Assembly (NCBI GenBank): GCA_013178275.1
Contig: JABLWZ010000002.1
Span: forward strand, 162,416 to 226,415
Length of the DNA stretch: 64,000 nucleotides
Direction of reading: 5' to 3'
Origin: Bacillota bacterium
GTDB taxonomy: Bacteria > Bacillota > Ch66 > Ch109
How positions within the stretch are numbered: the stretch's first letter is position 1; each line of letters starts with the position of its first letter. A program made the position numbers and the translations under genes. Shown piece by piece: positions 35,571 through 55,350 of this stretch. The notes beneath the pieces were generated by a model. The model saw nothing but the letters and a program-made list of their open reading frames with translations, did not search any database and was not told where the DNA came from.

Positions 35571-36152
35571 ATGCAACAAAAGACTGATAAAACAAACCCA
35601 TCTGAGAAAATTCTTATAACGGCCTTTGAATGTCTTTCTACAAGAGGTTATGCCAATGTATCCATGCGAAATATTGCCGAGGAAGCCGGAGTCGCGTTAA
35701 GTCAACTGACATACTACTATAAGAATAAAGAAAAATTATTCATTGAAGTTATCAATATGATGACACTCCAATATTTACATGAAATAGAAGGAAATTTAGA
35801 ATCTGTCACGGGTGAGAAAGAAAAGCTCGCGTCCCTCGTGAGGTTCTTTAAGGAACTGATCAGGGATAAACCAAAACTTTTGAAACTTTTTATTGATTTT
35901 ATAGCACAGGCTTTATGGATTCCGTCTTTTAGAGAACAACTGGACAGCTTATTTACTGAGCTGACGGAGGTTGTTGAAAGAAACCTATTGACCTACACGA
36001 AAATCAATAAAAGATATCTTGGATATTCTCCCCAAACGGTAGCTAAATTAGTTCTTGGAGCTTTGCTCGGAACATCTATTCAAATAATACTCGGTTCCGA
36101 CCGGGACAGCGCCTTTGAATCCTTAAATTTGGCAGAGAGCCTATTAAATTAA
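35571..36152 (+). CDS. TetR/AcrR-family regulator
   Basis: GYANVSMRNIAEEAGVALSQLTYYYKNKE HTH. Confidence 0.9.
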   Translation: MQQKTDKTNPSEKILITAFECLSTRGYANVSMRNIAEEAGVALSQLTYYYKNKEKLFIEVINMMTLQYLHEIEGNLESVTGEKEKLASLVRFFKELIRDKPKLLKLFIDFIAQALWIPSFREQLDSLFTELTEVVERNLLTYTKINKRYLGYSPQTVAKLVLGALLGTSIQIILGSDRDSAFESLNLAESLLN

Positions 36153-36167
36153 GAGGGAGTGTATATT

Positions 36168-36506
36168 ATGTCAAACGCATTTGAAAAGACAATTAATTTA
36201 GGATTAGGGCTTTTATTGTATTCACGGGAAAAAGTGGAGGAAGTGGTTGAGGAACTGGTCGGCAGAGGCGAGGTGGCCAAAAAAGACGCCCGGCAGTTTG
36301 CGAGCGAGCTTATGCAAAGAGGCGAAGAACAGAGAGAAGAACTGAAAAAGCTGATTCAGGGTGAGGTCACCAAGGCTCTGGATCATGTAAATGTGGCGAG
36401 AAAAGAAGACCTTGTTACAAAAGATGAAATCAGAGAAATTGTCAGAGAACAAATGCTGCAAGTACTCCGGGAACAAGGATTTTTCAAAAGCGAGGGCACC
36501 AAGTAA
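36168..36506 (+). CDS. Phasin-like / PHA-granule-associated family protein
   Basis: LGLGLLLYSREKVEEVVEELVGRGEV amphipathic helices; sits directly upstream of an ABC1 kinase. Confidence 0.65.
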   Translation: MSNAFEKTINLGLGLLLYSREKVEEVVEELVGRGEVAKKDARQFASELMQRGEEQREELKKLIQGEVTKALDHVNVARKEDLVTKDEIREIVREQMLQVLREQGFFKSEGTK

Positions 36507-36585
36507 AGGGGATAAATGTTCAGAATGCCGGAAAAGTAGCAGGCTCAGGAAAGAGGGCAAATCAATCTAAATATGCTTTTGCTAT

Positions 36586-38343
36586 GTGATGAACGATAGA
36601 AGTGCCTCCTTTCCCCTCTGCTTAAATATTGCGGAATCGCGGGATAGAGTTGATATGATGAATTACAGGCGCATTTGTGCCAGAAGATATAAAGAAATCA
36701 TTGCTGTTTTTACAAAACATGGTTTTGGATTGCTTGTAAAGCGACTTAGGCTTCCTTATTCTTTAAGGTCCAAAAATAGAATTTTAGACGTCGGAACTGC
36801 ACCTGACACGGCCGGAGCTTCAGTAGGAAAAAGGCTGAAGATGGCCTTGGAAGAATTGGGTCCGACGTTTGTTAAACTGGGACAAATTTTAAGCATACGA
36901 CGGGATATTTTACCGGCTGATATTATTGAAGAGCTTAAAAAGCTGCAAGACTCGGTGCAGCCGTTTCCTTTTTCTGGGGTAAAGACGCTCATTGAAACGG
37001 AGTTTAATGACACGCTGGGAAATATCTTTAAAGAATTTGATGAGGTGCCTGTAGCCGCAGCATCCATATCCCAAGTCCATCGCGCCAGACTGATTTCGGG
37101 AAAGCAGGTGGCCGTAAAGGTTCAGAGGCCGGAAATAGAAAGACTCATAGATTTGGACTTAAACATTTTAAAAGATATGGCGCATCTTCTCGACCATCAC
37201 ACAAAATATGGGGAGATTTATGATTTTAGCGGTATGGTGGCGGATTTTGAAAACACGCTTAAAAATGAACTGGATTTTACCAAAGAAGGTGAAAATGCGG
37301 ATACCTTCAGGCTTAATCTCAGCCGGGACGAAGGCGTAACAGTCCCAAAAGTGAAGTGGATATATACGACAAAGCGGGTTCTCACCATGGAGTATTTTGA
37401 AGGCATCAAGATCAGCGATTCAGCAGCCTTGGATCTGGCCGGCATTAACCGGAGAAAGATCGCCGAGAAGCTTGCCGCCTCCATATGCAATCAAATACTC
37501 AGAGATGGTTTTTTTCATGCGGACCCGCATCCGGGCAATATTCAGATCATGCCGGACGGCACCATCATATTTCTTGATTTGGGGATGGTAGGTTGCCTCA
37601 ACGAATCCCGGAAAAGAGCGATTTCAAATTTTTTTGTCGGGGTTGCCTTCAAAGACAGTCGAATGGTGGTCAACTCTATTTTTGCTATGGAGGCCGCAAC
37701 TGCTCGAAGCAATGTGAAGAGCTTTGAAAAAGACGTTGATGCGCTGATCGAAAAGTACCTTACGATGCCTATGAAAGAGATGAAAATTGATAAGCTGCTC
37801 CAGGAAATCTTTCATATTGCGTTTTTGAACCATGTAAAAACACCCCGTGAATTTGCTTTGCTTTCCAAAACTTTGACAACTCTTCAAGGACTGTTGGAAA
37901 AACTGGCCCCGGATCTTAACGCCCTTGTTATTGCGGAACCTATCGCTAAAAAGCTGCGTTATCAGTTACTTTCATTCGAGAAAATGGGAAGCGGAATAAA
38001 AAAGAGCTTATTAGATTACTGGAATCTGTTGAGTGAATTCCCGACCGCAATGCAAAACCTTCTGCATAAAGCGGCAGATGCAGACTTTGCCGTTCAATTT
38101 GAGATGAAAGAGATGGATAAACTTCAAAGGCGATTGGAACGAATTTTCAACAGAATATCCTTCAGCCTGATTTTGCTTGCCGTAAGCATTATCATCGCCG
38201 GAGTCCTGATAAGCTCCGGTCTTAACGCAGATACAAGCAGCGAAATGTATCTTTTTAATATTGCAGTATTAAAAACTGGTTTAGCATCGGCTGCTATTAT
38301 TGTTTTGGGACTGGTGATTTCAATGATCAGGTCAAGGCACTGA
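36586..38343 (+). CDS. AarF/ABC1/UbiB-family atypical kinase
   Basis: EELGPTFVKLGQ, AAASISQVH, VAVKVQRP, FFHADPHPGN, DLGMVG, C-terminal TMs. Start codon uncertain (possibly 36655). Confidence 0.9.
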   Translation: MMNDRSASFPLCLNIAESRDRVDMMNYRRICARRYKEIIAVFTKHGFGLLVKRLRLPYSLRSKNRILDVGTAPDTAGASVGKRLKMALEELGPTFVKLGQILSIRRDILPADIIEELKKLQDSVQPFPFSGVKTLIETEFNDTLGNIFKEFDEVPVAAASISQVHRARLISGKQVAVKVQRPEIERLIDLDLNILKDMAHLLDHHTKYGEIYDFSGMVADFENTLKNELDFTKEGENADTFRLNLSRDEGVTVPKVKWIYTTKRVLTMEYFEGIKISDSAALDLAGINRRKIAEKLAASICNQILRDGFFHADPHPGNIQIMPDGTIIFLDLGMVGCLNESRKRAISNFFVGVAFKDSRMVVNSIFAMEAATARSNVKSFEKDVDALIEKYLTMPMKEMKIDKLLQEIFHIAFLNHVKTPREFALLSKTLTTLQGLLEKLAPDLNALVIAEPIAKKLRYQLLSFEKMGSGIKKSLLDYWNLLSEFPTAMQNLLHKAADADFAVQFEMKEMDKLQRRLERIFNRISFSLILLAVSIIIAGVLISSGLNADTSSEMYLFNIAVLKTGLASAAIIVLGLVISMIRSRH

Positions 38344-38372
38344 AAAATAACACGCAAAAGGAGCAATGACAG

Positions 38373-38894
38373 ATGGTCGGTTGGATCATTTCAAAATTAA
38401 GACTGGAACCGGATTCCTTCGCTGATATGGAATACTTGGACTGTATACGCGAGCTGATTGACCATGAAATGGTCAGGTCTATGAAAAATTATATACAACA
38501 CAGCGACATCGATTGTTTAGAGCATAGCCTTTATGTGTCGTACAGCAGCTATCTTGTTTGCAGGCGGATGGGGCTTGACTATCGTTCGGCGGCCAGAGGA
38601 GGATTGCTACACGATTTTTTTCTGTACGACTGGCATATTGAAAAGCCATATAGAGGGCTACATGGCTTTGCCCATCCCCGCATTGCGCTGCGGAATGCGA
38701 ATCAGTATTTTCATTTGAACGAACTGGAACAGGATATTATCAGTAGGCATATGTGGCCTTTGACCATCACGCCGCCGAAATATAAGGAAGCATACATTGT
38801 GGCCGCGATAGATAAATATTGTGCATTTATGGAAATTTTCAATTTTGGAGAAAGAAAAAATGTGCTTAGGTTGCAAAGCCTATTGTGCTGTTAA
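38373..38894 (+). CDS. HD-domain phosphohydrolase
   Basis: QH..IDCLEHS, GGLLHDFFLYDW, HGFAHP, HMWPLT, DKYCA. Confidence 0.85.
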   Translation: MVGWIISKLRLEPDSFADMEYLDCIRELIDHEMVRSMKNYIQHSDIDCLEHSLYVSYSSYLVCRRMGLDYRSAARGGLLHDFFLYDWHIEKPYRGLHGFAHPRIALRNANQYFHLNELEQDIISRHMWPLTITPPKYKEAYIVAAIDKYCAFMEIFNFGERKNVLRLQSLLCC

Positions 38895-38923
38895 TGCACC
38901 TTTCTGAGAAAGGATCAAAAAGT

Positions 38924-39847
38924 ATGTTAGATTTTATAGCAATCCCGATGGGAGCCATCTTGAAATATATATATGATAACATTGCGTTTCAGAATTATGG
39001 AATCGCAATCATACTTTTTACGGTAGGAATAAAATCACTTATGCTTCCCCTGACCATAAAGCAGGTTCAATCGACCTCAAAAATTGGTCAGCTTCAGCCA
39101 CAGATGCAGGAAATTCAAAAGAAATATAAAGACGACAAGGAAAAGCAGAGTACGGAGCTGATGAAACTCTATCAGGAAAATAAGGTGAATCCGACCGGAG
39201 GCTGCCTTCCCCTGCTGATACAGATACCGATTTTGTTTTCTTTATATTACGTTATTTCCCAGCCTTTGAAATACATGGCTGGGAAATCTCCTGAAATCAT
39301 AGCGCGGCTCTATGAACTGATACCGCAGGGTGCCGAAAAGATTGAGAATATGAAAGATCTGAGCATTATTGCTTATTTTAGTGACCACTCAGAACAGCTT
39401 CAGGCGGTATCTCATTTGCTGAAACCGGAAGATTTACTCAATATGAATTTTTTAGGGATCAATCTTGGAGCAGTGCCCGCCTGGAATCCCGGCAATTATA
39501 TCAACAGCGGTACAAGCATACATAGCTACCTTCTGCTGTCGATTCCGTTGCTGTCGGCCCTCACATCCTATATTTCAGTAAAATATTCCATGAAGGATAC
39601 GCCGAAAGCAAACGTAGATCGGATGCAGGCGTCCATACAAAATAACTTAGCCTTAATTTCACCCATCATGAGTGGAGTGATTGCTTTTACAGTTCCTGCC
39701 GGGTTGGGCCTGTATTGGATCATCGGGAATATTTATCAAATCGTGCAACAGATGTTTATAAACATCTTTGTTTTAAAAAAGCGTAGTGACAGGAAAAAGC
39801 AAACCGAAAACGGCAATAGTGAATTACGTCAGACGGATACACCATAA
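38924..39847 (+). CDS. yidC: YidC/Oxa1-family membrane insertase
   Basis: NYGIAIILFT, LQPQMQEIQKKY, NPTGGCLPLLIQIPIL, PAGLGLYW. Confidence 0.9.
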   Translation: MLDFIAIPMGAILKYIYDNIAFQNYGIAIILFTVGIKSLMLPLTIKQVQSTSKIGQLQPQMQEIQKKYKDDKEKQSTELMKLYQENKVNPTGGCLPLLIQIPILFSLYYVISQPLKYMAGKSPEIIARLYELIPQGAEKIENMKDLSIIAYFSDHSEQLQAVSHLLKPEDLLNMNFLGINLGAVPAWNPGNYINSGTSIHSYLLLSIPLLSALTSYISVKYSMKDTPKANVDRMQASIQNNLALISPIMSGVIAFTVPAGLGLYWIIGNIYQIVQQMFINIFVLKKRSDRKKQTENGNSELRQTDTP

Positions 39848-39887
39848 GATGGATTCTCGGATTACTTTGGGAGGGGGCTCGGCTTAA

Positions 39888-40478: not shown

Positions 40479-40583
40479 TTATATGGCAGCCCATTATTTT
40501 TTATTTATCAGTAGTCAGATTTTAGCAATGTGAAAGCTGCGCTGCCTGTAAAGCATTCCCAAACTGAAATTGGAGCAGGTAGT

Positions 40584-41687
40584 ATGAAAAACATTATTGA
40601 TTACGCAATAGAAGAAAGTGATACTTTTAAAAATAGAAAATTCAACGCGGCTGACAGCCTGGTTTTATCCCAATTGGCGTATCTGCGTTTTGATAAGTTC
40701 GTACCCGGTTTATTTGATACCGCGACGCCGGTAAGCATAAAAGAAATAGCAAGCAAGGAAAACCTGGATATGCTGTTTCGTGATACATGGAACAGTAAAA
40801 ACAACCGGCGTCTATTCTTTGCGCTGGCGAACAGTTCAAGGTTTCGTGACTTGAAAATGGTTTTTTATGTCAATAAAATAGACAACAAGACTGAGAAGCA
40901 GTTCTCAGCCATTACGTTTTTGCTGGACGACTGTTCAGCCTATATCGCTTATCGCGGAACCGATTCAACCTTTATTGGATGGAAAGAGGATTTTAACATG
41001 GCATTCATCAGCCCTGTTCCCTCACAGGAAGAAGGAGTCGCCTACCTGAATGCCGTTGCCGACAGAATTTCATGCAAATTAAAAATTGGCGGACACTCAA
41101 AAGGAGGAAATATTGCGGTCTATTCCTCTATAAAATGCCACAGACCCGTTCAAAAAAGGATTACGCATGTCTTTAGTCACGATGGACCCGGATTTAGGGA
41201 TGAAGTTTTTCTATGCCACGACTATTTAATTGTGAAAGATCGAATCCATAAGACTTTGCCGCAGTCATCCATAATCGGAATGCTTTTGCAGCATCAGGAA
41301 CACTATTCTGTAGTAAAAAGCAATCGCCTCTGGTTTATGCAGCACGATCCTTTTTCATGGCTGATTGACGGCAGCGATTTTCAATATATGCAATCCGTGA
41401 AAAAAAGCGCGCTTTATATGAATGGAACGCTAAACCAATGGGTTAACTCCTTTGACGACCAAAAACGAGAACTGTTTGTTAATACTCTTTTTCAGATTAT
41501 CCAAGCAACAAGTGCCACAACATTTTATGATCTGACAGGAGATTGGCCCAAAAAGGCTGTTGCCATGCTCGGCGCGATCAAAGGTATCGATGATGAGACA
41601 AAAGCGTTTATTTTTCAAACCATAAGGGCTCTGTTTGTTTTAGCTGTGAAAAATATACGAGAGATAAGGTCGGAGAATTTACAATAA
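40584..41687 (+). CDS. DUF2974 (Mbeg1-like) alpha/beta hydrolase, putative lipase
   Basis: DSLVLSQLAY, QFSAITF, YRGTD...GWKEDF, nucleophile elbow GHSKGG, DGPGF, QHD. Confidence 0.85.
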   Translation: MKNIIDYAIEESDTFKNRKFNAADSLVLSQLAYLRFDKFVPGLFDTATPVSIKEIASKENLDMLFRDTWNSKNNRRLFFALANSSRFRDLKMVFYVNKIDNKTEKQFSAITFLLDDCSAYIAYRGTDSTFIGWKEDFNMAFISPVPSQEEGVAYLNAVADRISCKLKIGGHSKGGNIAVYSSIKCHRPVQKRITHVFSHDGPGFRDEVFLCHDYLIVKDRIHKTLPQSSIIGMLLQHQEHYSVVKSNRLWFMQHDPFSWLIDGSDFQYMQSVKKSALYMNGTLNQWVNSFDDQKRELFVNTLFQIIQATSATTFYDLTGDWPKKAVAMLGAIKGIDDETKAFIFQTIRALFVLAVKNIREIRSENLQ

Positions 41688-41771
41688 GCTTGAAAACTGT
41701 AAACATGCAGTTCTTAAAGCAAGAGAGCAGTTTTGTGCAGCTATTGCCGGAAAAAATGTATTTTGTTATTA

Positions 41772-42065
41772 TCATAAAGATGCTTTTTTTATCCCTGCCG
41801 TACCAAAACTTTTTGGTAACAGAATCGCCCCCACCGCCCGTAAGAAAGCCCCTATCACCGGTAGCTCAAACAGATAGGCTGCCGCCAGGAACGTTATTTT
41901 TCGCGGCCAAAAAGCTGCCAAAAGAAACCCATCCAGCAAGCTAGTATGATTAGCAACCACGATCACCCGCCCACTACTGGGGATATTTTCCTTCCCGGTT
42001 ACTATAGGCCTCCCGTAGAGCCACAATAGCCCCTTGGAAATCACCTTAACCAAAGTATAGACCAT
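41772..42065 (-). pseudogene. 1-acyl-sn-glycerol-3-phosphate acyltransferase (PlsC-like), truncated
   Basis: GKENIP...VANHTSLLD (HX4D). Similarity stops after LRAVGAI; no FPEGTR block. Confidence 0.75.
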
Positions 42066-42099
42066 CCCGCAGCTTCACAACCTTCTCCTATCGTGTTCT

Positions 42100-45000
42100 C
42101 TAGTCGCTGATCGATACATCCTCTATTTCCGTTCCCGGCTTCACTTTATACCATGCGGCGTACATGGTCGGCAAAACCAGCAGCGTCAACAGGGTAGCGG
42201 CAAAAAGCCCCCCGGCGATAGCCACTGCCATTGGTCCCCATAAAACACTGGTGGTCAATGGAATCATGCCCAGGATAGCCGCGGCCGCGGTTAGCACTAT
42301 AGGACGAAATCTCTGCACCGCCGCATGTATTATGGCATCCCAGGTAGACTCTCCAGCCTTGAGCTGCTGTTCTATCTGGTCAATTAAGATGATAGAATTG
42401 CGGATGATAATTCCCGCCAACGCTAGAATCCCGCAATATACCACAAAACACAGGGGCTGCCGGGTAAGCAGAAGGATGGGAGCCACCCCAATCATCCCTA
42501 AAGGGGCGGTCAGCAGGGTCAGTATCATTTTCGGCATGCTCCTAAGCTGCAGCATCAGTAGGATGACTATCACAATTATCATCAAGGGGACCTGCTTAAC
42601 CAGATTAGCGATGGCCAGATCAGCCATCTCCTTGATCCCCCCGACCTCGATGGTGTATCCGAGCGGCAGTCCCTCACGTATCCCTTTAAGGCTGTCGTAA
42701 ACCCGCTTGGTCGCATCTATGTCTGTGATACCAGATCCCGCCTTCGCCTGAACGGTGATAGACGGTTTTAAATCGCGCCGTCCCAGTAGACCTTCTTCAG
42801 CACCGTAGCTGATCCTGGCCACCTGGTCTAAAGGAACAAACTGGCCGCTTCCGGTCGGAATGTTTAAGTCTTTAATCCCAGTTAGATTGGCCCGGTTCAT
42901 CGCGTCGAGTCGGAACACCATGCTGACCGTCCGGTCTTTTTCTCTATACTCAGATATCGGAGCGCCGGAAAGCTGCGACTGCAGGGTTGAGGCCAAGCTT
43001 TGACTGTTAACTCCCAGCATCCTGGCCTTATCCTGATCAACCTCCAAATGTATTACCTTGCTCTTTTCACTCCAGTCAAGGTTTACGTCATTGAGATAGG
43101 GCTGGGATACCATAACCGACTCGACCTGCTTGGCGATCTCCCGCACCTTGCCTTCATCCTCGCCGGTGACCCGCAGCATCACTGGATAATTGAACATCGG
43201 AGCGGTTTGGAGCATTCTAACCTGCCCAAGAACAGATGGAAACTGTTGAGATAAAGTTTCATTGATTTTATTACAGAGTCGGTCACGGGCATCGACATCC
43301 CTGGATACAATCATGAATTGAGCTATACTGGAATCGGGGACCGAAGGAAAAAAGGTTATCAAAAACCGCGGCGCTCCCTGCCCCACATAATAGCTGTAAT
43401 TTACGATATCAGGATCACCCTCCAGGGTCTGGGCGAATTTATTGGCTTCTGCATCCGCGGCTTGTATAGAAGCTCCTTCCGGCAACTTCATATCAACAAT
43501 GATTTCCGGCCTGGACGGTGGCGGGAAAAAATCATTTTTAAGCAATGTCATCAGCAAAATAGAACCGAGAAAAGCCGCCAGGGTCAGAGCCAGGACCAGT
43601 TTGCGGTGATTTAAACACCAGATGAGGATCTGCTTGAATAAGCGGTAAAACTTTGTATCATATAGATCGAAGGAACGTTCGTGAGTCGCCGGTTTGACCT
43701 TGATCAAATGATATCCCATCAGGGGAGTGGCAGTGCCGGCCACCACCCAGGATATAAGCAAAGCCATGGCTACCACCAGGAACATGCTGCCCAACAGCTC
43801 GCCCACCGATCCTTTGGTAAGCCCCATGGGAATAAAGCCGGCACTGGTAATCAGCGCCCCGGTCAACCGGGGACCCGCCGTGGATGCGAAAGCGAAACTG
43901 GCTGATCTTCCGCGATCCCACCCTTGTTCCAGTTTCACCTTCATCGACTCCACGACAATAATGGCGTCATCGACTAGCAATCCCAGGGCCACGATCAAAG
44001 CTCCCAGCGAAACCTTGTGTAGATCGATACCAGTGGTTTTCATCCCAATTAGAACCCCGGCGATCACCAGGGGAATACATAAAGCCACCACTATCCCGGT
44101 GCGCATTCCCAGGCTCAGGAAGCATACCAGGAGAACGATAGCAATGGCGATAATTAAGGTTATAACGAATTCGTTAATCGCTTCCTTTACCACCGCGGGT
44201 TGATCCGCCACTCGGTTTAACTCCATACCCAGCGGCAGGTCCTGATTGATCTTAGCGATGTTCTCGTTCAGATCTTTTTCCAGGTTTAAAATGTTCCCTC
44301 CTTCTTCCATGGATATGGCCAATCCGACCGCCGGTTGGCCATTAAAATACATTTTCGGTTCCGGGGGGTCGGCGTATCCCCGCTTCACAGTGGCGATATC
44401 ACCCAACCGGAAGGTGCCGCTGCTGGCGTTAACCGGCATATTACGGATGCTGTCAACATCGTCAAACATGCCGGATACGCGTAAATAAACTCTATCAGAA
44501 GAAGTCTCGATCATCCCTGAGGGGGTCATGGCGTTTTGCGCCTGCAGAGAAGCGATGATCGAGTTAGGGTTTATCCCCAGTTTGGAAAGCTTGCTGCTCT
44601 CCATTTCTATGTAGATTTTTTCGGGCTGCACCCCGATAAGTTCCACTTTTTTTACATCATTAACCCCCAACAGAGTTCGGCGTATCCGTTCCGCCTCCGC
44701 TCTCATGTCTTCATATGTAAAACCATCCGAAGTAAGCGCATAGATTGAGCCAAAGACATCCGCATAATCATCGTTAAAATATGGCCCTACCACCCCTGAC
44801 GGCAGTGTATCCTTGATGTCGAGAACTGAGTTGCGGACCTTGAACCAGGTCGGTTGGAGCTGATCCTTGCCGACCTCGACCTTCAAGTTGACATAGATGA
44901 CCGACTGTCCAGGCGTCGAATAACTCTGCAGATAATCGAGCCCGGGCGTGTTCTGGAGCTGCTTTTCTATCTTGTCGGTGACCTGTTCTTCAACCTGCTG

Positions 45001-45177: not shown

Positions 45178-45236
45178 GACGCTACCTCACAGACAGAGTT
45201 AATTAACAAAAATCGCTGTTATTAATCGAAACTCCC

Positions 45237-46334: not shown

Positions 46335-46372
46335 GGATTATTCACCTCCAAAATTCCCACAACCGCCAAACC

Positions 46373-46401
46373 ATTGGTACCAATCTGGTTACATTGGTAC
46401 C
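46373..46401. promoter_or_regulatory. Putative TetR operator upstream of the efflux operon
   Basis: Palindrome ATTGGTACCAAT plus a second ATTGGTACC; shares its core with 47079..47094. Confidence 0.6.
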
Positions 46402-46429
46402 GCCAAAAAAAACACGTGTTTCACAGTTA

Positions 46430-47035
46430 TCAATAAAGCCAACTGTTACACAGAAAAGGCATCCGGTTAGTCTTTTTATCCGGTTCGACCAGTCCGTTGA
46501 GCAGTATATCGACCATGATTGATGTCGCTTCTTTTGGAATAAGATTATTTTGGCTCATGTATTTATAGTTGGATAGCTGGTCGGATATGCCATTAAATAT
46601 CATCTTGATGACAGCCGGGTCCACAGGTCTAAAATACTTGGCCTCAACCCCTTTACGTATAATCTCTTCGATCAGGTCCCATTCTTCATCGCGAAAACGG
46701 TTGATTTTTTCCCTTTCCTCCGGCAGGTAGCGCATAATATCATCCAGGATGCGTGACATCAACGGGTCGTATCTTTTTAAGGGGTAGATGACTTGAAACT
46801 GCTTAATTTTTTCGGCCATTGAAAGCCCGTCATCTTTTATAACAGCCATTCCCTGCTGGCGTATATCGTTCAAAAATTGGTCAACGATCGCCCCAATCAG
46901 TTCTTCCTTGGAGTCGAAGTATTCATACAGGGTACGCTTGCTGACAGCTAGTTTCTGTGCCAGGTCACTCATGGTAAACTTGATGCCTTGAACAGCCATC
47001 TCTTCAGTTGCCGTCATTAGAATCCGGTTTCGCAA
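46430..47035 (-). CDS. TetR-family regulator of the RND operon
   Basis: GIKFTMSDLAQKLAVSKRTLYEYFDSKEEL. Confidence 0.9.
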   Translation of the reverse strand: MRNRILMTATEEMAVQGIKFTMSDLAQKLAVSKRTLYEYFDSKEELIGAIVDQFLNDIRQQGMAVIKDDGLSMAEKIKQFQVIYPLKRYDPLMSRILDDIMRYLPEEREKINRFRDEEWDLIEEIIRKGVEAKYFRPVDPAVIKMIFNGISDQLSNYKYMSQNNLIPKEATSIMVDILLNGLVEPDKKTNRMPFLCNSWLY

Positions 47036-47060
47036 AACTAATCACCCTCTGTCAGAAGCT

Positions 47061-47094
47061 AATGGTACTTAATTAGTTCCAATGGTACCATTGG
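47061..47094. promoter_or_regulatory. Putative TetR autoregulatory operator
   Basis: Perfect 16-bp palindrome CCAATGGTACCATTGG plus AATGGTAC, close to a minus-strand TTGACA (47105-47110). Confidence 0.65.
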
Positions 47095-47240
47095 CTTCTT
47101 CCCGTGTCAATAGAATTATTTATCCCTTAACCCTCAGTGCACGAGAAAAATAAGAAAGGGAATAAATAAACGAGACCGACATAATAGAATCGAATTAGAT
47201 AAGATATTATAAGATATTGATATAATTATTCCACTAATAA

Positions 47241-48452
47241 ATGATCCTAGAACCTGGAGTGACGATTTTGGATATTCTTAATTTGCCTGGTTTTAAAGTG
47301 CTTAAAACAGAAGAGAATCAGTACGATTATAGGACAACCACCGAGTTAACGGAAAAACCAGGTTGTTGCCCCCATTGCGGCAGCAAACCAAATTTGTATC
47401 TTCACGGAAGCCGTGAACAATTGGTTCGTGACACTAGTATCCACGGTAAAAGAGTGGGGATTCTTTTTTTACGTAAGCGTTATAAATGTCGTGAATGTGG
47501 GTCAACTTTCTATAAATCCGCACCTGCTATCGACAAAAAGCACGTTTCACTACGAGGCTGGTTGAATGTATTCAGCAACAGGCTTTGGGCCAGCCATTCC
47601 TTCATATTGCAGAAGAAATAGGCATTAGTCATACAATTGTACGCAAAATCTTTAATGAATTTGCAGAAAAGAAAGCAAGCGAGACTCGGCTGATTACCCT
47701 ACTAGTTTTGGGAATTGACGAAATTCATGTTTCTAAGAAGCCCAGAGGCATCCTCTGAAATATCGAAGAAAATACTGTCGTAGAAATGTTGCCCAATCGC
47801 AATAAAGAAACAATCCTTGCGGCTTTACGTAAGTTCGATTCCAATAAGGTTGAAATTGTTGCAATAGATATGTGGAAGCCCTACCGGGATGCAATAATGC
47901 AAGTGTTGCCCGGCGCAACTGTAGTTGTAGATAAATTTAATGTTCTCCGCATGCGTCGGATGCAATGGAAAAAATACGGAAAGCCATACGCGATAAAACC
48001 CCAGACAAACAACGACGACAGTTAAAACGAGATAAGTTTATTCTTCTTAAAAACGGCAAAGAACTAACCATTCAAGAGCAGTTATTATGGAAGCCTGGTT
48101 AGGCACATTTCCAGCTTTAGAGAAGGCTTGGAATCTCAAGGAACAGTTATATCAAGTCTATTAGCCAAAAGACATAATTGAAGCAAAAGCAAGGTATCGG
48201 GAATGGAAATCAAAAATCACCCCAGAAGTAGCTCCTTTTAATGATGTAGCTAAAAAACTATTGATAATTGGCAAAGAGAAATATTCAATTACTTCTTACA
48301 GAGAATACACAAACGCTTACAGCGAAAGCATAAATAATCTCATACGATTGATTGAACGTACCGGAAGGGGTTATTCTTTTGAAGTCTTGCGATATAAAGT
48401 TTTGTTCGGAATAAAGCATAAAAAGATCCCTAAATATGATGACAATAAATAG
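47241..48452 (+). pseudogene. ISL3-family transposase pseudogene
   Basis: Zn ribbon CPHCG...KRYKCRECG, then GIDE, AIDMWKPY, VVDKF and TNAYSESINN spread over several frames with stops. Confidence 0.85.
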
Positions 48453-48635
48453 AGTCGAACCATTTTATTTAAAGTTTTTTCTTTTCTCCATTATCATAAG
48501 TGTTAACTTTCTTGTTAGAAACATAATTTAAGGGCGCTTGTACCCTAACAATCTGCGAAAGTGCCGGTTCCAAGCGGATTCCAAGGCATGGGATATTAGA
48601 TTAGATGTTATTTTCAGCGTTTATATAAGGTGTCA

Positions 48636-49652
48636 TCATTTTGATGATTTCGGCAAGGGTGCGGCCGGTTCCGCTCTCTCTTTTTTGTGCCTGTCATATG
48701 ACTGACCCTCAGGCCGGATCGTCCTGTACCCTTCTGGCACGCCAATCTTCCGGCTAATTTCCTCCATATCACGCGACCATTCAAGTGTTACCAGCGGCAG
48801 CCCGGCCCCGCCTCTTATGGAGCATACAAAGTCATGCACCGCATTCCTGCACGAAGCGGAAACGCCCTTTTCGGCAATATATACGCCAAAAATGTTGCCA
48901 TAAGAGATGGCGCGGCGGACATATTCCGTGGAGGTCGCTTCTGAGAAGGTGCTTTCATCATAGTTTGTATGAAAACCATAAAAACAACGGTTGTTTTTAA
49001 GAATATGAAAAGCTTTGAGGCAACTTTCATCAGTAAGGCTTGCATCTGTTGCTTGTACAGAAACCATAGTATTATGCAGTTTACTAAGAGCTTCAGCAGT
49101 TTGATCCGTAATTAAGTCGGGAAATACTTTGAATACAAATAAGCATTCATCAAATCGCTTTGCTATTTCACATAAAGCGATGATGTTGCTTGCTTCATGG
49201 AAGCAGAAGATATAGCTGTAAATACCCATATCCCGCCCTTCCCTTATGAAATGCTCCATCTGATGAAAAAAATCTGAACCGGATTCGTAAACATCAAAAA
49301 TCAGAAGCCATGGAAGAGACCCCCCAAAATAATCCTGTCTTTTTTTCAGCTTATTAGCCCCATATATCAGGCTGCTGTATCCCAGATTCAGACCGACTTT
49401 TTTTATCGTATCGTTGTTAACATCGGAAATTATTCTTTTAACCAGCGAATTATAAGGATTCTTTGGATTGGTAATGACCTTTTTGGCGGCATCAAAAAAA
49501 CATTTCTGATTTTCACTTGTTGAAAAAAGTAGGCCCAAATCAATCAGGTTTCTTATGCTGCGTCTTGTGTTGCTTTTCATATCTTCCATAGCCTTGCTGA
49601 CAGCTATATTGATTGTCTGCCTTATCAGCCTATGCTGCAACTCCAACAGCAA
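48636..49652 (-). CDS. Radical-SAM-fold paralog lacking the CX3CX2C motif (putative pseudoenzyme)
   Basis: Colinear similarity by eye with 49830..51212, with no cysteine triad after PWLLIFD. Confidence 0.65.
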   Translation of the reverse strand: MLLELQHRLIRQTINIAVSKAMEDMKSNTRRSIRNLIDLGLLFSTSENQKCFFDAAKKVITNPKNPYNSLVKRIISDVNNDTIKKVGLNLGYSSLIYGANKLKKRQDYFGGSLPWLLIFDVYESGSDFFHQMEHFIREGRDMGIYSYIFCFHEASNIIALCEIAKRFDECLFVFKVFPDLITDQTAEALSKLHNTMVSVQATDASLTDESCLKAFHILKNNRCFYGFHTNYDESTFSEATSTEYVRRAISYGNIFGVYIAEKGVSASCRNAVHDFVCSIRGGAGLPLVTLEWSRDMEEISRKIGVPEGYRTIRPEGQSYDRHKKERAEPAAPLPKSSK

Positions 49653-49728
49653 ACAACTCCCTTTTAAATAATAAAGTACATTATTTAATATACCCCAAAG
49701 CGGAGATGTGCTCTATTGACAGATATTT

Positions 49729-49755
49729 GCTTGTGTAAAGTTTCTTTACACAAGC
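49729..49755. promoter_or_regulatory. Palindromic operator in the divergent promoter region
   Basis: GCTTGTGTAAAG-TTT-CTTTACACAAGC, perfect 12-bp arms, downstream of TTGACA at ~49716. Confidence 0.65.
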
Positions 49756-49829
49756 TGTTTTTGTCTAATTACTCAAAATATGCTCTATGCTACACTTCAT
49801 CATAGATTAATTTGATTGGGGGCTGTATC

Positions 49830-51212
49830 ATGAACAAAATTATCGGGTCTACAGGGATGAAGCTGGCATATGCCTACTTAAATTCCAATCCTGAAAGGAA
49901 TGTGCCAAAACTCATGGATTGGGTAGATCGTATGGCTATAAACAATACAATGGAAGGTCAGCGCAAGGCGATCCGTAAGATCATCGAAGATAAGGACAAC
50001 AACTGGTATAAGCTGATTCTCAGTATGTGGACAGATGTTGATCCCGGGGTGCGGAAGGCGTTTTTCAATAATTTCGTATTAAATGAAAACTTCATCGGAT
50101 GGCCCATACAGGAGAAAAACCGGGAAAAGTACGGCTGTAACATACCATGGGCAATCCTGATGGACCCCACCTCAGCCTGCAACCTCAAATGCACAGGCTG
50201 CTGGGCGGCGGAGTACGGCAATAAAATGTCTATAAGCTATGAAATACTGGATAGCATCATTCAGCAGGGTAAGGAACTTGGGGTATATTTTTTCCTCTAT
50301 TCCGGCGGAGAGCCGCTTGTACGAAAGGCGGATATTATACGTCTTTGTAAAAAACATAGCGATTGTCAGTTCCTGGCGTTCACGAACGGCACGCTGATTG
50401 ACGAGGCGTTTGCCGACGAAATGCTGCGCGTCAGGAATTTTGTACCGGCCCTCAGCATCGAGGGATTTGAGGACGCCACGGACTCCCGTCGCGGCAAAGG
50501 CACTTATCAGGCGGTCATACACGCTATGGATATCCTCCGGCGGAAAAAACTCATATTCGGCGCTTCTCTCTGCTATACGCGCGATAACACCGAGGTGATC
50601 GGCAGCGAAGAATTTTTCGATTTCCTGATCGACAAAGGGGTGAAATTCGCGTGGTTCTTCACCTATATGCCGGTGGGCGCGGATACGACGCCTGATTTAC
50701 TGGTAACCGCCGAGCAGCGTGAGTTTATGTACCGCCAGATCCGTCACTTCCGCGGAACTAAGCCTCTGTTCACCTTGGATTTCTGGAATGACGGCGAATA
50801 TGCAGGCGGCTGTATCGCTGGCGGGCGCAGGTATCTGCATATCAACGCTAACGGGGATATCGAACCATGCGCGTTCATCCATTATTCGGATTCCAATATT
50901 CATGAAAAAACGCTTCTTAAGGCGCTGCAGTCCCCTCTGTTCACACAGTACCACAGGAACCAGCCCTTTAACGACAACCACCTGCGGCCCTGCCCTCTTC
51001 TGGACAATCCGGGCAGACTGACGGCGATGGTGGAGGCATCCGGTGCGGCCTCGACGGATTTCGTCAAACCGGAGGACGTACACAGCTTGAGCGGTAAGTG
51101 TGTGAATGCCGCTAAAAAATGGGCTGTGACTGCGGAAAGGCTGTGGGGTGAATCACACAACTACGCCGGTTGCGCGCAATGCGGTGATGAGGCTCGAAAG
51201 GCCATTGGTTGA
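49830..51212 (+). CDS. Radical SAM protein with SPASM/Twitch domain
   Basis: DPTSACNLKCTGC (CX3CX2C), SGGEP, FTNG, GCIAGG..INANGDIEPCAF, PCPLLD. Confidence 0.9.
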   Translation: MNKIIGSTGMKLAYAYLNSNPERNVPKLMDWVDRMAINNTMEGQRKAIRKIIEDKDNNWYKLILSMWTDVDPGVRKAFFNNFVLNENFIGWPIQEKNREKYGCNIPWAILMDPTSACNLKCTGCWAAEYGNKMSISYEILDSIIQQGKELGVYFFLYSGGEPLVRKADIIRLCKKHSDCQFLAFTNGTLIDEAFADEMLRVRNFVPALSIEGFEDATDSRRGKGTYQAVIHAMDILRRKKLIFGASLCYTRDNTEVIGSEEFFDFLIDKGVKFAWFFTYMPVGADTTPDLLVTAEQREFMYRQIRHFRGTKPLFTLDFWNDGEYAGGCIAGGRRYLHINANGDIEPCAFIHYSDSNIHEKTLLKALQSPLFTQYHRNQPFNDNHLRPCPLLDNPGRLTAMVEASGAASTDFVKPEDVHSLSGKCVNAAKKWAVTAERLWGESHNYAGCAQCGDEARKAIG

Positions 51213-51299
51213 AAAAAACCGGCGCTTTCCTCCAGCCGGGAGACTCATTCTGGCGTGCGCTTGCCATAAAAGCGGCTGCCGTGGCGCAGGGGGCTTGCT

Positions 51300-52172
51300 A
51301 TGAGCGATTTTATTATTTTCACTGATGCCGCATCGGACCTTCCGACAGAGTTGATTGAAACCCATGGAATTTCTGTTTTACCCATGTATTTTGAAATAGA
51401 TGGTAGAAGCTACCGTCATTATCCTGACGGCAGAGAACTCGGATATTCTAGGTTTTATCAGATACTTCGCTCCGGCATCATGGCTAAAACATCGTTGGTT
51501 AACAGTTTGGAGTACCTGAACTATTTTGAACCTGTATTAAAACGCGGTCTGGATATCCTCTACATATCTCTTTCTTCGGGGTTGAGCGGCACTTATCAAT
51601 CCTCAGTAATAGCCGCGAAGGAATTAATGGAAAGGTATCCTGAGCGAAAAGTATACTGCATTGACTCGCGTTGCGCCAGCGTAGGACAGGGTATGCTTGT
51701 GTACCACGCCGCGCTAAAAAAGTATGAGGGTTTAGATATAGACGAATTGAAGGATTGGGTAGTTCAAAATCGTGATCACCTGTGTCATTGGTTTACGGTG
51801 AATGACTTGAATTACTTAAAACGGGGCGGCAGGTTAAGTACTTCAGCAGCTATCGTCGGCACTATGCTTTCAGTGAAACCAATTCTTCATGTTGATAAAG
51901 ATGGTCATCTCATCCTGAGAGGGAAAGTACGAGGACGCCGTAAGTCTCTAGTAGAGCTTGCCGAACATATGGAAAAATTCTGTGTTAGACCGGAGAAACA
52001 GACGATCTTTATCGGACATGGAGACTGCATTGATGATACAGGTATCCTTGCATCTATAATCAAGCAAAGATTTGCACTAAAGGATGTAGCTATCAGCTAT
52101 GTCGGACCAATTATTGGAGCGCATACCGGACCTGAGGTGATGGTTTTGTGCTTCTTTGGCAGTGAAAAATAG
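51300..52172 (+). CDS. DegV/FakB fatty-acid-binding protein
   Basis: TDAASDL, LSSGLSGTY, IDSRCASVGQG, LKRGGR, IGAHTGP. Confidence 0.92.
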   Translation: MSDFIIFTDAASDLPTELIETHGISVLPMYFEIDGRSYRHYPDGRELGYSRFYQILRSGIMAKTSLVNSLEYLNYFEPVLKRGLDILYISLSSGLSGTYQSSVIAAKELMERYPERKVYCIDSRCASVGQGMLVYHAALKKYEGLDIDELKDWVVQNRDHLCHWFTVNDLNYLKRGGRLSTSAAIVGTMLSVKPILHVDKDGHLILRGKVRGRRKSLVELAEHMEKFCVRPEKQTIFIGHGDCIDDTGILASIIKQRFALKDVAISYVGPIIGAHTGPEVMVLCFFGSEK

Positions 52173-52196
52173 TCTGAATAAAAGAGGATGAATTAA

Positions 52197-52967
52197 TTGC
52201 TTATTTTAGCAAAATACTTTTTATGGTTTATTGTATATAGCTTTGTGGGATGGGCCTATGAATCCGCAATTTGCTCAATAAGTGAACTAAGCCTTGTAAA
52301 TCGTGGGTTTTTGAATGGCCCGTTATGTCCGGTTTATGGTTTTGGAGCTTTAGCCTCCATATTTATTTTGGATATGAGAACAGACAATCTTTTTATTCTG
52401 TTTTTTTCCGGCATGCTTATAGCCTGTACGGTTGAATATATCACCGCGGTTTTGCTTGAAAAGCTGTTTAATGCGAAATGGTGGGATTATTCTAATTACC
52501 GTTTCAATATCCAAGGACGTGTCTGTCTTATAGGGGCCGTAGTTTTTGGTGTTCTCGCGGTGCTGCTTATCAAGTATATTCATCCGTTTGTCGGAGCTTT
52601 GATTGGCCAACTGCCTGTTTTGTGGCAGATTGTTTTATCAATCGTTATTTTTATTTTTCTCATACTGGATTTGTATATAACTGTGCGTCACCTTCTGGTT
52701 CTGAACAGCAGACTGAAAAAGATGCAATTGGCAATAAACCAATTTTTGAAGCAGTATGCACAACAGGCCGGAGAACTTAAAGAGTCTCTTATGAGCAAAT
52801 TTGAAGAAAGTGAATTTTATAACGAGCGCATTAAAGCTTTAATTAGTCTAAGTCGGTTTCAGAATATAAGAATTATTAGGGCATTCCCAAGCTTACGATC
52901 CATCAACTATGATGATGCATGGCAAAAGCTTAAAAGCATTTTGTTAGGCTCTGATAGCAGGAATTAG
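52197..52967 (+). CDS. Membrane protein ('putative ABC transporter permease' family)
   Basis: YSFVGWAYE, NRGFLNGPLCPVYG, WWDYS..FNIQGRVC. Confidence 0.8.
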   Translation: MLILAKYFLWFIVYSFVGWAYESAICSISELSLVNRGFLNGPLCPVYGFGALASIFILDMRTDNLFILFFSGMLIACTVEYITAVLLEKLFNAKWWDYSNYRFNIQGRVCLIGAVVFGVLAVLLIKYIHPFVGALIGQLPVLWQIVLSIVIFIFLILDLYITVRHLLVLNSRLKKMQLAINQFLKQYAQQAGELKESLMSKFEESEFYNERIKALISLSRFQNIRIIRAFPSLRSINYDDAWQKLKSILLGSDSRN

Positions 52968-52989
52968 AAATTTGCGTTTATAGATGTGC

Positions 52990-53150
52990 TTTAGAACCAT
53001 GAAAAATTATATACAACACAGCGATATCGCATTGCTTAGAACGTAATTTTTATGCCTTTCTGTTAAAGCATTACCTCGCATATAGGCAGACGAGGTCTGA
53101 TTGCCTATTCAGAAGTACCTTTTTTCTGTTTCATTTTGTACATAAGACAT
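52990..53150 (+). pseudogene. Decayed copy of the HD-domain gene
   Basis: ATGAAAAATTATATACAACACAGCGA is identical at 52999 and 38481 (26 bp); weaker similarity continues downstream. Confidence 0.55.
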
Positions 53151-53194
53151 TCTTAAACGAACGAGGGGCTATACGCCCAAAGAGGAAACATAAT

Positions 53195-53779
53195 ATGAAC
53201 TTACCAAACAAATTGACAATATTAAGAATGATATTGATACCAGTTTTTATTATTCTTTTAATGAAAGAGTATTATTACGTGTCGGGAATTCTCTTTATTG
53301 CAGCTTCTATTACAGATGCCCTGGATGGATATTTAGCAAGAAAATACAATCTCATTACGGATTTCGGCAAGACAATCGATCCTCTGGCTGATAAGCTTCT
53401 GATTACATCAGCTTTGATTTGTTTAGTGCAACTAGGCAATATTGCGGGATGGCTTGCCATAGTGATTCTGGCGCGAGAATTTATAATTACCAGCTTAAGA
53501 TCTGTTGCGGCTAGAGAAGGCGTAATCATTGTTGCAGAAAGATCGGGAAAAATCAAAACAGTATTGCAAATGTTAGCCTTGTCGGTTATTTTGCTGCGCA
53601 ATTGGCCTTTTTCAATTTTTACCGATTTACCTATCGGAGATTATTTACTTTGGCTTGCTGTAGGCATGACCTTGTATTCGGGAATTGACTATATTATAAA
53701 AAATAAAACATTACTTCTGCCAAAAAGTTCAAGAATGAAAAACAGCCCAATATTCAGCACTATAGCAAAAGAAAGCTGA
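53195..53779 (+). CDS. pgsA: CDP-diacylglycerol--glycerol-3-phosphate 3-phosphatidyltransferase
   Basis: MNLPNKLTILR, TDALDGYLARK..ITDFGK.IDPLADK, GKIKT. Confidence 0.93.
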   Translation: MNLPNKLTILRMILIPVFIILLMKEYYYVSGILFIAASITDALDGYLARKYNLITDFGKTIDPLADKLLITSALICLVQLGNIAGWLAIVILAREFIITSLRSVAAREGVIIVAERSGKIKTVLQMLALSVILLRNWPFSIFTDLPIGDYLLWLAVGMTLYSGIDYIIKNKTLLLPKSSRMKNSPIFSTIAKES

Positions 53780-53961
53780 ATATAGGGCGTTTATTGATAT
53801 ACAACTATTGTATCAAGAAAAGGTAAAAATTTATAGCACGGCCTGCCTGATAACCCATCTAGCCAGAGCAGAGCCTATTTCATCGCCATAAAGATGCTTG
53901 ATGCGGCCATGTTATCTAGGTGACACGGCCGGTATGCGCCGCAAAGCGAGGAGTGATTCTG

Positions 53962-54987
53962 GTGACAAAAACAACGATTGTCGGGGCCGGTAGTTGGGGC
54001 ACGGCTTTATCATATTCATTGGCATCCAACAAAAAAAAAGTAACCCTCTGGGGCAGAGTAGAGGATGGAATCAATGAGGTAGCAGAAAGTAGGCAGAATC
54101 CCCGTTTCCTTCCCGGCGTTATTTTGCCGCAGGAAGTAGAAGTGTCCAACGATCTGGAGAAAGCCCTTGCCGGAGCAAAAAATGTTGTACTGGCTGTGCC
54201 CTCTCATATCGTACGGGAAGTAACGCATAAAATTGCCGGTTTTTTAGAGCCTGGCTGTATCGTTATCAACGTAGCCAAGGGGATTGAAACGGAGACCTTA
54301 CTGCGCTTGTCTCAGGTGATTGAAGAAGAGCTCAGCGGTAAAAACACTCATATTTCTGTCTTATCCGGACCCAGTCATGCCGAAGAAGTCGGACGTGGCG
54401 TCCCCACAGCTGTAGTGGTGGGCGCTAAAACTCGCCAAGTAGCTGAAAAAGTACAAGATCTCTTTATGTCTCCGCTTTTTCGGGTCTATACAAACCCTGA
54501 CCTGGTGGGAATCGAATTGGGTGCAGCTTTGAAAAATATCATCGCCTTGGCTGTTGGAATCACGGAAGGTCTGGGCTATGGTGATAATTCAAAAGCGGCA
54601 CTGATCACTAGGGGTTTGGCGGAAATCGCCCGTTTAGGTGTGGCGGCCGGAGCGAACCCGCTGACCTTTGCAGGACTGACGGGTGTGGGTGACTTAATCG
54701 TAACTTGCACCAGCATGCACAGCCGTAATCATCGTGCTGGTATCCAGATTGGGCAAGGGGTTCCCCTGGATGTAGTCCTGGAGCGGATGGGTATGGTTGT
54801 GGAAGGTGTGAGAGCTACCCAGGCAGCTTATCGCATGAAGGATGTTTATCAGGTCGCGATGCCTATCTGCGAGGAAACATACAATGTCCTCTTTAATAAA
54901 AAAGACACCAAAGAAGCGGTCATGGATCTGATGCTACGTCAACGCACGCATGAGGTCGAAAAAATTGTGATGAATCCACCTTCTTAG
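53962..54987 (+). CDS. gpsA: NAD(P)H-dependent glycerol-3-phosphate dehydrogenase
   Basis: GAGSWGTAL, SGPSHAEEV, KNIIALA, GVGDLIVTCTSMHSRN. Confidence 0.95.
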   Translation: MTKTTIVGAGSWGTALSYSLASNKKKVTLWGRVEDGINEVAESRQNPRFLPGVILPQEVEVSNDLEKALAGAKNVVLAVPSHIVREVTHKIAGFLEPGCIVINVAKGIETETLLRLSQVIEEELSGKNTHISVLSGPSHAEEVGRGVPTAVVVGAKTRQVAEKVQDLFMSPLFRVYTNPDLVGIELGAALKNIIALAVGITEGLGYGDNSKAALITRGLAEIARLGVAAGANPLTFAGLTGVGDLIVTCTSMHSRNHRAGIQIGQGVPLDVVLERMGMVVEGVRATQAAYRMKDVYQVAMPICEETYNVLFNKKDTKEAVMDLMLRQRTHEVEKIVMNPPS

Positions 54988-55338: not shown

Positions 55339-55350
55339 AGATGAAACCAT

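Follow-up and report, generated by a model that had tools for sequence, protein, structure and literature searches.

A decayed integrative and conjugative element at a tRNA-Leu gene carries a conserved, probable membrane-lipid remodelling module around an Mss-homologue radical SAM enzyme

We analysed a 64,000-nucleotide stretch of a Bacillota bacterium genome (assembly GCA_013178275.1, contig JABLWZ010000002.1, positions 162,416 to 226,415), hereafter the window. It holds the remnant of an integrative and conjugative element (ICE) whose cargo combines a SPASM-class radical SAM (S-adenosylmethionine) enzyme, hereafter the enzyme, with genes for lipid metabolism and regulation (Table 1). A sequence-only reading of this DNA had described a mobile membrane-lipid remodelling cassette with the enzyme as a candidate synthase of membrane-spanning lipids. 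Pfam and NCBIfam scans recovered every gene that it had named, at or near where it had placed them. An open reading frame (ORF) that it had not mentioned, beside the enzyme gene, is a degenerate paralogue of that gene. Judged from sequence, the enzyme family of this locus is a known one and its genetic setting is new, namely an ICE-borne cassette with a cluster-less partner and a DhaS-like TetR regulator accompanied by a palindrome.

The family in question is that of Mss, the bacterial membrane-spanning lipid synthase of T. ethanolicus (WP_129545148.1) and T. maritima (Tmari_0825, WP_004080829.1) (Sahonero-Canavesi et al. 2022, PMC13159169). The enzyme is 61% identical (266 of 438 residues, BLASTP) to OBV_12720 of Oscillibacter valericigenes Sjm18-20, and OBV_12720 (BAK98470.1) is listed, together with BAL00855.1, as an Mss homologue of that strain (Table S3, PMC13274423); by this route the enzyme can be assigned to the published family of Mss homologues. 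The published thresholds for such homologues were E <= 1e-50 with at least 30% identity in 2022 and E <= 1e-30 with more than 30% identity in 2026, and according to Table S3 OBV_12720 passes the latter. In the O. valericigenes genome, the enzyme matched strongly at two places, 1.212 Mb (61%) and 3.452 Mb (59%), and less well at a third (37%, E 3e-50), and a protein search found the ORF at 1.212 Mb to be 100% identical to "hypothetical protein OBV_12720". One Mss homologue is listed for O. valericigenes DSM 18026 (Table S21, PMC13159169). The counts agree for two further species, Geosporobacter ferrireducens and A. odorimutans DSM 5092, each with two Mss homologues in Table S3 of PMC13274423 and each with two matches to the enzyme (85% and 35% in the former, 61% and 58% in the latter). 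The proposal that the radical SAM gene is an Mss-type candidate thus stands in the sense that the gene lies within the family that the discoverers of Mss count as its homologues.

The enzyme is the only copy in its own genome. We scored 7998 relatives, and the best 120 of 7998 were mostly 69-93% identical to it, with one row at 59%. Seven cysteines are invariant across 67 aligned sequences: C123, C127 and C130, which form the CxxxCxxC radical SAM motif, and C179, C334, C353 and C394. The enzyme retains every column that is invariant among these homologues. Several genomes hold, beside the long form, a shorter class of paralogue with frames of 360-385 amino acids that are 33-37% identical (E 1e-45 to 1e-58; at G001:C1:3111597-3112505 and G005:C1:1480453-1481301, and in genomes G037 and G043). 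The shorter paralogue of G. ferrireducens is apparently counted among the listed Mss homologues (Table S3, PMC13274423).

The ORF head-to-head with the enzyme gene, newly noticed here, is by its sequence a cluster-less paralogue of the enzyme, transcribed in the divergent direction. The two proteins align at 21% identity over 274 residues, the N-terminal helical domain included (BLASTP, E 2e-11), with a gap exactly at CxxxCxxC. We surveyed 80 loci of the enzyme with 10-kb flanks, clustered the ORFs within 6 kb of the enzyme and scanned their representatives against Pfam. The paralogue occurs head-to-head with the enzyme in 28 of these loci, a lower bound since several contigs end before the upstream gene and three loci lack a whole enzyme ORF. 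The CxxxCxxC motif is present in none of the 28 paralogues, as against 77 of 77 enzymes. Run against 1.84 billion proteins, a profile built from 29 paralogue sequences retrieved 655 representatives at E <= 1e-30, a number that rose to 1148 at E <= 1e-10, and the motif occurred in one of its best 150 matches. On the enzyme tree the pairing is widely spread, with 13 state changes, which argues that it is old within the family.

An AlphaFold2 model of the paralogue (pLDDT 88.5) has the same helical domain as the enzyme followed by a radical-SAM-like barrel, and its closest solved chains were SuiB (Z 14.9), SkfB (Z 14.8) and PqqE (Z 14.4). Its relatives in the ESM Atlas are hypothetical Bacillota proteins, with a TM score of 0.88 to radical SAM/SPASM proteins of 465 amino acids, and a sequence search of the PDB with the paralogue gave chance-level matches only. 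A predicted complex of enzyme and paralogue, run without controls, scored 0.00. A similar arrangement is published for T. maritima, where mss (482 amino acids) is adjoined by a TetR gene (190 amino acids) and by a second gene annotated as radical SAM (Tmari_0827, 316 amino acids; Table S20, PMC13159169). The window shows a similar neighbourhood, with a TetR of 196, an enzyme of 466 and a paralogue of 338 amino acids, the 316-amino-acid gene being compared by annotation only.

Table 1. Features of the ICE remnant and its cargo, in window positions.
Feature	Position	Strand	Basis or remark
ICE remnant, left-truncated	29769-58882		blastn, 89-94% nucleotide identity to a fuller ICE (locus L002, genome G002)
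PrgI	30054-30419	+	Pfam
VirB4-like ATPase	30412-32748	+	Pfam; 97% identical to G002 VirB4
DUF6075	32826-33233	+	Pfam
M23 peptidase	33258-35264	+	Pfam
TetR regulator 1	35571-36152	+	PF00440 1.3e-12
Phasin-related protein	36159-36506	+	NF047773 41.1 bits, cut-off 35
UbiB/ABC1 atypical kinase	36586-38343	+	PF03109 2.5e-79; TIGR01982 475.6 bits, slightly below cut-off 487.55
Small HD-domain protein	38373-38894	+	PF01966
Extra YidC insertase	38885-39847	+	PF02096; TIGR03592 181 bits
DhaS-like TetR, TetR_C_8 type, 196 amino acids	39888-40478	+	TIGR02366; PF14278 4.1e-28
Mbeg1-like alpha/beta hydrolase, lipase-like	40530-41687	+	PF11187 2e-82; GHSKGG serine motif in translation
Secondary insertion (PlsC fragment, RND permease, membrane-fusion protein, TetR 3, ISL3 remnants)	41703-48765		Comparison with L002; G+C
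PlsC N-terminal fragment	41772-42065	-	PF01553 positions 3-70 of 132
RND permease	42100-45177	-	Pfam/NCBIfam
Membrane-fusion protein	45237-46334	-	Pfam/NCBIfam
TetR 3	46430-47035	-	Pfam/NCBIfam
ISL3 transposase, frameshifted, five pieces	47241-48452	+	Pfam
Cluster-less radical SAM paralogue, 338 amino acids	48636-49652	-	BLASTP to enzyme; no Pfam family
Perfect palindrome, 12+12, candidate operator	49729-49755		Between divergent paralogue and enzyme
Radical SAM/SPASM enzyme, 466 amino acids	49812-51212	+	PF04055 1.8e-16, PF13186 4e-05; true start likely ATG at 49830
DegV fatty-acid-binding protein	51300-52172	+	Pfam/NCBIfam
PF06541 membrane protein	52197-52967	+	Pfam
PgsA	53195-53779	+	TIGR00560 167.8 bits, above cut-off
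GpsA, glycerol-3-phosphate dehydrogenase	53920-54987	+	NF000941 470 bits, above cut-off
Small sigma-70 region-4 protein	55351-55758	+	Pfam/NCBIfam
HTH_17 excisionase-like gene	56517-56843	+	Pfam
Tyrosine integrase	56947-58422	+	Pfam; 97% identical in L002
Complete tRNA-Leu(CAA), element-borne	58594-58679	-	ARAGORN
42-base 5' half of tRNA-Leu(CAA), right junction	58841-58882	-	ARAGORN and sequence reading

The order of the long cassette (TetR, phasin, UbiB, HD protein, YidC, TetR, lipase, a variable slot, paralogue/enzyme, DegV, PF06541) recurs in at least 7 of the 80 loci, from different Clostridia (L002-L006, L022 and L035), so the gene set is kept together elsewhere. Occupants of the variable slot were Lgt, an AI-2E transporter, an acyl-ACP thioesterase or a PgsA-like gene. 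Across the survey, the most frequent neighbour was a TetR of the TetR_C_8 type (37 loci), and TetR 1 was matched in six loci (tblastn). DegV lies directly downstream of the enzyme in 10 loci, with a median gap of 92 bases, and ABC1/UbiB directly upstream in 6 loci other than the window. PF06541 and VTT/DedA proteins were each found near the enzyme in 8 loci, PgsA in 5, SAM synthetase in 4, and acyl-ACP thioesterase and PlsY in 3 each. Response regulators (12), glycosyltransferases of families GT4 (11) and GT2 (10), histidine kinases (10) and Mur ligase (10) complete the recurrent set. Lipid genes dominate these surroundings, in keeping with the lipid-remodelling context first proposed. The PgsA and GpsA of the island are extra copies, 47% and 55% identical to their chromosomal paralogues.

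The cassette enzymes form one clade (15 rows, support 100) in a tree of relatives 57-93% identical, under the host labels Thermacetogenium, Geosporobacter, Christensenella and Pelethousia. A match to the enzyme at E <= 1e-30 was found in none of five genomes of the same family (78-97% complete) but in 11 of 25 genomes of other families, at 33-55% identity, which argues that the cassette was acquired horizontally. Movement between distant Clostridia is thereby borne out. Near other copies of the cassette, a homologue of the window's VirB4 (62%) lies about 25 kb away in genome G003, with an integrase 7 kb downstream, and another (42%) about 47 kb away in G. ferrireducens. The same search gave no match in genomes G010 and G011 and weak matches (26-27%), on other contigs, in G012 and G013. 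Three loci from Methanocorpusculum metagenome-assembled genomes (L032, L037 and L044) carry enzyme homologues that are 62-65% identical, with ABC1/UbiB directly upstream, and these homologues form one clade nested among Clostridia. By their sequences, they look like the product of a bacteria-to-methanogen transfer, unless they are a binning artefact.

The element itself could be compared with the fuller ICE of genome G002. Upstream of the segment that the two have in common, G002 encodes a Toprim/DUF3991 protein, a SIR2-HerA pair, a NikA-like protein and a relaxase, and further on DUF3801, ArdC, a VirD4-type coupling protein and a TrbC pilin. The window has unrelated low-G+C sensor genes at the corresponding left side. 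The relaxase and coupling protein of G002 had no match at E <= 1e-10 in the window's own genome (100% complete by markers, 55 contigs), and we therefore regard the element as the left-truncated remnant of an ICE. The idea of a self-transmissible ICE was rejected, since only PrgI, VirB4, DUF6075, the M23 peptidase, the excisionase and the integrase are present. The mobile-element claim accordingly holds for the transfer genes on the left and the excisionase and integrase on the right. It fails for transfer itself: lacking a relaxase and a coupling protein, this copy is not transferable as it stands, and the module is fixed in place in this genome. In G002, the SIR2-like gene followed by a HerA-type ATPase (L097:2436-5272) is a pair typical of anti-phage defence, and the coupling protein is divided between two ORFs that overlap (9922-11244, 11135-11686).

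At the right end, the 42-base half of tRNA-Leu lies about 160 bases beyond the whole tRNA-Leu and differs from it at a few acceptor-stem and loop positions; the acceptor-stem differences are compensated. Homology with G002 stops at 58882 (blastn), and metagenome contigs of several runs diverge from the window at 58841 and 58882. Our reading of this arrangement is that the element inserted into a tRNA-Leu gene of the host and brought along a tRNA copy of its own. No left end of the full element was located in G002 by a search for exact repeats of at least 13 bases between the right junction and the 34 kb upstream, which found none.

Not all of the cargo belongs to the conserved cassette. The block of the PlsC fragment, the RND pump, TetR 3 and the ISL3 remnants has a G+C of 0.51 against 0.41-0.43 in its flanks, and L002 has in its place about 2.1 kb with Lgt and an AI-2E transporter. 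Since the block ends in a dead transposase, it is a later insertion, and the RND pump and plsC fragment, which the sequence-only reading had counted as members, fall outside the cassette. The insertion replaced the last ~43 codons of the 338-amino-acid paralogue, and homology to L002 begins only at 48765. A second difference from L002 is the absence there of gpsA, with flush junctions in otherwise collinear elements, an exact gene-sized indel. No repeat was seen at its junctions (window 53920-54987 versus L002:14102-14107).

Near-identical DNA occurs in sequencing runs of other studies, with 0.56 of sampled words present in run X2 and 0.41 in run X3. Contigs of X2 span the RND block with 0-2 differences, and one contig skips the lipase gene. 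Run X4 contains an abundant, more distant variant (90-95% alike, depth ~136-145) that joins 40785 to 51305 and so is without paralogue and enzyme but retains DegV, PF06541 and PgsA; it also joins 53771 to 56720, across gpsA to the excisionase gene. At this degree of likeness, the variant may be another element. These comparisons bear on the view that the module is an inactive relic in this genome, consisting of a dead ICE, a damaged paralogue and drifting genes. That the ICE is truncated and that an insertion-sequence-mediated event cost the paralogue its C-terminal residues, leaving a dead transposase and a plsC stub, would fit such a view. We nevertheless consider it unlikely, as the enzyme keeps all columns invariant among the 67 homologues, the enzyme, DegV, PF06541, PgsA and GpsA are whole open frames, and the same RND-bearing form recurs nearly unchanged in X2.

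Regulation of the module may centre on the second TetR. This protein scored 132.1 bits against TIGR02366, passing the cut-off of 129 for DhaS equivalogs by a narrow margin, and its best solved relatives were PDB 4mk6 and 2iu5 (DhaS). Between the divergent paralogue and enzyme genes lies a perfect palindrome, GCTTGTGTAAAG-ttt-CTTTACACAAGC, which occurs once in the window, with 0 expected from 100 shuffles. Its core GTGTAAAG..CTTTACAC is repeated, between differing flanks, at the matching position of L002, L003 and L004, and L006 and L022 have a shortened version of it. We regard the palindrome as a putative operator of the DhaS-like TetR, which probably binds there. Two further loci, L005 and L062, have in the same gap unrelated hairpins with arms of 19-20 bases in place of the GTGTAAAG palindrome.

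The FadR-type model ranked top among NCBIfam models for TetR 1, but its score was far under the cut-off. Such FadR-like scores below cut-off, taken together with the DhaS-like TetR, hint weakly at the fatty-acid responsiveness that had been claimed for the system. The DhaS of Lactococcus is reportedly activated by a protein that has bound its ligand and shares its class of fold with DegV, and fatty-acid-loaded DegV could therefore be the signal for the TetR here.

Taken together, we put at roughly 0.6 the probability that the cargo of this decayed, tRNA-Leu-targeting ICE is a conserved accessory module for membrane-lipid remodelling whose core consists of the Mss-homologue enzyme, its cluster-less paralogue and the DhaS-like TetR. 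The original interpretation survives as regards the Mss-homologue family, the conserved gene set, its spread and the lipid context, and is given up as regards transferability and the membership of the RND pump and plsC fragment. We propose that the enzyme, by means of SAM and a [4Fe-4S] cluster, would remove hydrogen at the distal end of acyl chains and would couple two tails into long dicarboxylic (diabolic-type) chains, with the inactive-looking paralogue as a structural or substrate-holding partner. DegV would bind fatty acids and either carry them or partner the TetR as its ligand sensor. Extra PgsA and GpsA may raise the supply of phosphatidylglycerol, the lipase-like protein may free acyl chains, the UbiB kinase and its phasin-like partner may handle lipids at the membrane, and YidC may help to insert new membrane proteins. 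Spanning-lipid analogues with phosphatidylglycerol head groups have been published.

Several observations weigh against this proposal. The first concerns structure. The AlphaFold2 model of the enzyme (pLDDT 88.4) contains an N-terminal domain of five helices (residues 2-107) together with a radical SAM barrel and an auxiliary-cluster domain. It lies nearer to the peptide- and protein-modifying SPASM enzymes SkfB (Z 25.4), SuiB (Z 25.0) and the anaerobic sulfatase-maturating enzyme anSME (Z 24.4) than to the archaeal lipid coupler GDGT-MAS (Z 17.6, rank 30, root-mean-square deviation 3.9, 257 residues aligned), which appeared only in a second-look alignment and not among the Foldseek matches listed. 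The modelled fold confirms the SPASM/twitch class and by itself gives no pointer to lipids. We rejected an identity with Tes/GDGT-MAS, for which phmmer found no match at E <= 0.01 (enzyme against PDB 7tol and 7tom) and the fold score is below those of SkfB, SuiB and anSME.

One explanation of this likeness is that the enzyme is a maturase of peptides or proteins, either of the type acting on ribosomally synthesized and post-translationally modified peptides (RiPPs) or similar to anaerobic sulfatase maturases, and that the lipid genes are unrelated cargo. The top NCBIfam scores, like the top structural matches, are those of such enzymes (NirJ2, DynA, the mycofactocin maturase and anSME), but all are far below their cut-offs. 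No NCBIfam model reached its cut-off on the enzyme, the best being NirJ2 with 68 bits against 500, and the anSME and RiPP SPASM maturases were rejected at 55.5 against 349.45 bits (TIGR03942), 64.8 against 450 (DynA) and 54.5 against 340 (PapB). Moreover, a precursor gene would have little space in the gaps beside the enzyme, of ~160-180 and 88 bases, the vicinity has no sulfatase, lipid genes and regulators are numerous among the recurrent neighbours in the 80 loci, and the enzyme family is listed as Mss homologues. We judge a maturase to be highly improbable.

Further points against the proposal lie in the chain of homology and in its phenotypes. The family link runs through a listed homologue, OBV_12720, and not through the proven Mss of T. 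ethanolicus or T. maritima. The published screen found membrane-spanning lipids in none of four species that carry listed homologues (O. valericigenes, D. orientis, A. woodii and D. gibsoniae), and O. valericigenes carries homologues that are 59-61% identical to the enzyme. The window's paralogue has lost its native C-terminus (~43 residues) to the insertion, and the roles given above to DegV, UbiB, the lipase and YidC are read from family names and adjacency. The close Methanocorpusculum homologues, finally, hint at a broader or different substrate. Methanocorpusculum is an archaeon, and its lipids are not expected to be fatty-acid based.

These data could also mean that the enzyme acts on lipids without coupling tails and modifies an acyl or isoprenoid chain by different radical chemistry, for instance cross-linking, cyclisation or the formation of a hydroxyl precursor, in which case the homologues in non-producing Clostridia would share that other function. 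The four non-producing species speak for it, as does the published threshold, by which all that is known of the cassette clade's identity to proven Mss is that it is 30% or more. UbiB as a partner and the Methanocorpusculum homologues suggest a substrate beyond bacterial fatty acids. The discoverers of Mss point out, however, that the production of spanning lipids varies with growth conditions, which makes a negative screen for lipids weak evidence, and the TetR and second radical-SAM-like neighbours match the mss locus of T. maritima. A lipid modification other than coupling therefore seems to us a minor alternative, with an Mss-type coupler at the core of the module preferred.

We can also formulate a bolder, and correspondingly doubtful, version of the lipid-remodelling module. 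Clostridial Mss-type couplers might be two-protein units in which the paralogue holds or presents the second tail to the enzyme, switched by a DhaS-like TetR that reads fatty-acid-loaded DegV, helped by a UbiB-type ATPase, and borne on ICEs that pass between distant anaerobes and even to methanogens. If true, this would explain the lack of spanning lipids in many carriers of Mss homologues under standard culture and the scant product obtained when the gene is expressed alone. Branched tetraether lipids find wide use as climate proxies, and which bacteria produce them is still debated. If Mss-type genes ride conjugative elements with their helpers, the presence of the gene would be a poor predictor of lineage and lipid output. 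The conserved partners (paralogue, DhaS-like TetR with its palindrome, DegV and UbiB) offer co-expression sets for silent carriers of homologues, and G. ferrireducens IRF9, which is in culture and carries the cassette, is a possible test organism. The words "DegV", "mobile" and "conjugative" are absent from the main texts of PMC13159169 and PMC13274423, as is "UbiB" from the main text of the latter, and among the papers listed by our literature search none linked Mss to DegV or conjugative elements.

Outside the element, the window contains two further low-G+C blocks. The one adjoining the truncated ICE (21872-29463, G+C 0.41-0.44) encodes a 1384-amino-acid CHASE4/HAMP/multi-PAS histidine kinase and, after it, three response regulators whose domains are of the HDOD or HD-GYP type. 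The other (10907-21150, G+C 0.37-0.48) holds PadR, a GH130 phosphorylase, a sugar nucleotidyltransferase, a GT4 glycosyltransferase, a phosphomannomutase and one of two DUF3231 genes, and ends at a Mu-type transposase (19828-21150, minus strand). The right end of the window, around polA, has a G+C of 0.62-0.65.

Among known systems, the regulator is closest to the DhaS-DhaQ pair of the Lactococcus dha operon, which it resembles in passing the TIGR02366 cut-off and in matching DhaS structures. It differs in that no dihydroxyacetone kinase genes are nearby and that the proposed partner is a fatty-acid binder. The element shares with Firmicute ICEs of the PrgI/VirB4 type the order of transfer genes, cargo, sigma factor, excisionase and integrase, here at tRNA-Leu(CAA). 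Unlike them, it is left-truncated without relaxase and coupling protein, carries lipid-metabolism genes rather than resistance as cargo, and has its own whole tRNA-Leu copy. The enzyme resembles Tes/GDGT-MAS, a coupler of two lipid tails, in its radical SAM and auxiliary-cluster domains and in its related fold, whereas the substrates of Tes are isoprenoid ether lipids and the window enzyme has no sequence match to it. The likeness to Mss comprises a radical SAM enzyme of ~460-480 residues from anaerobes and, for T. maritima, the adjoining TetR and second radical-SAM-like gene. The window enzyme differs from Mss as the cargo of an ICE, in the company of DegV, PgsA, GpsA, UbiB, YidC and a lipase, and with an adjoining paralogue that lacks the cluster motif.

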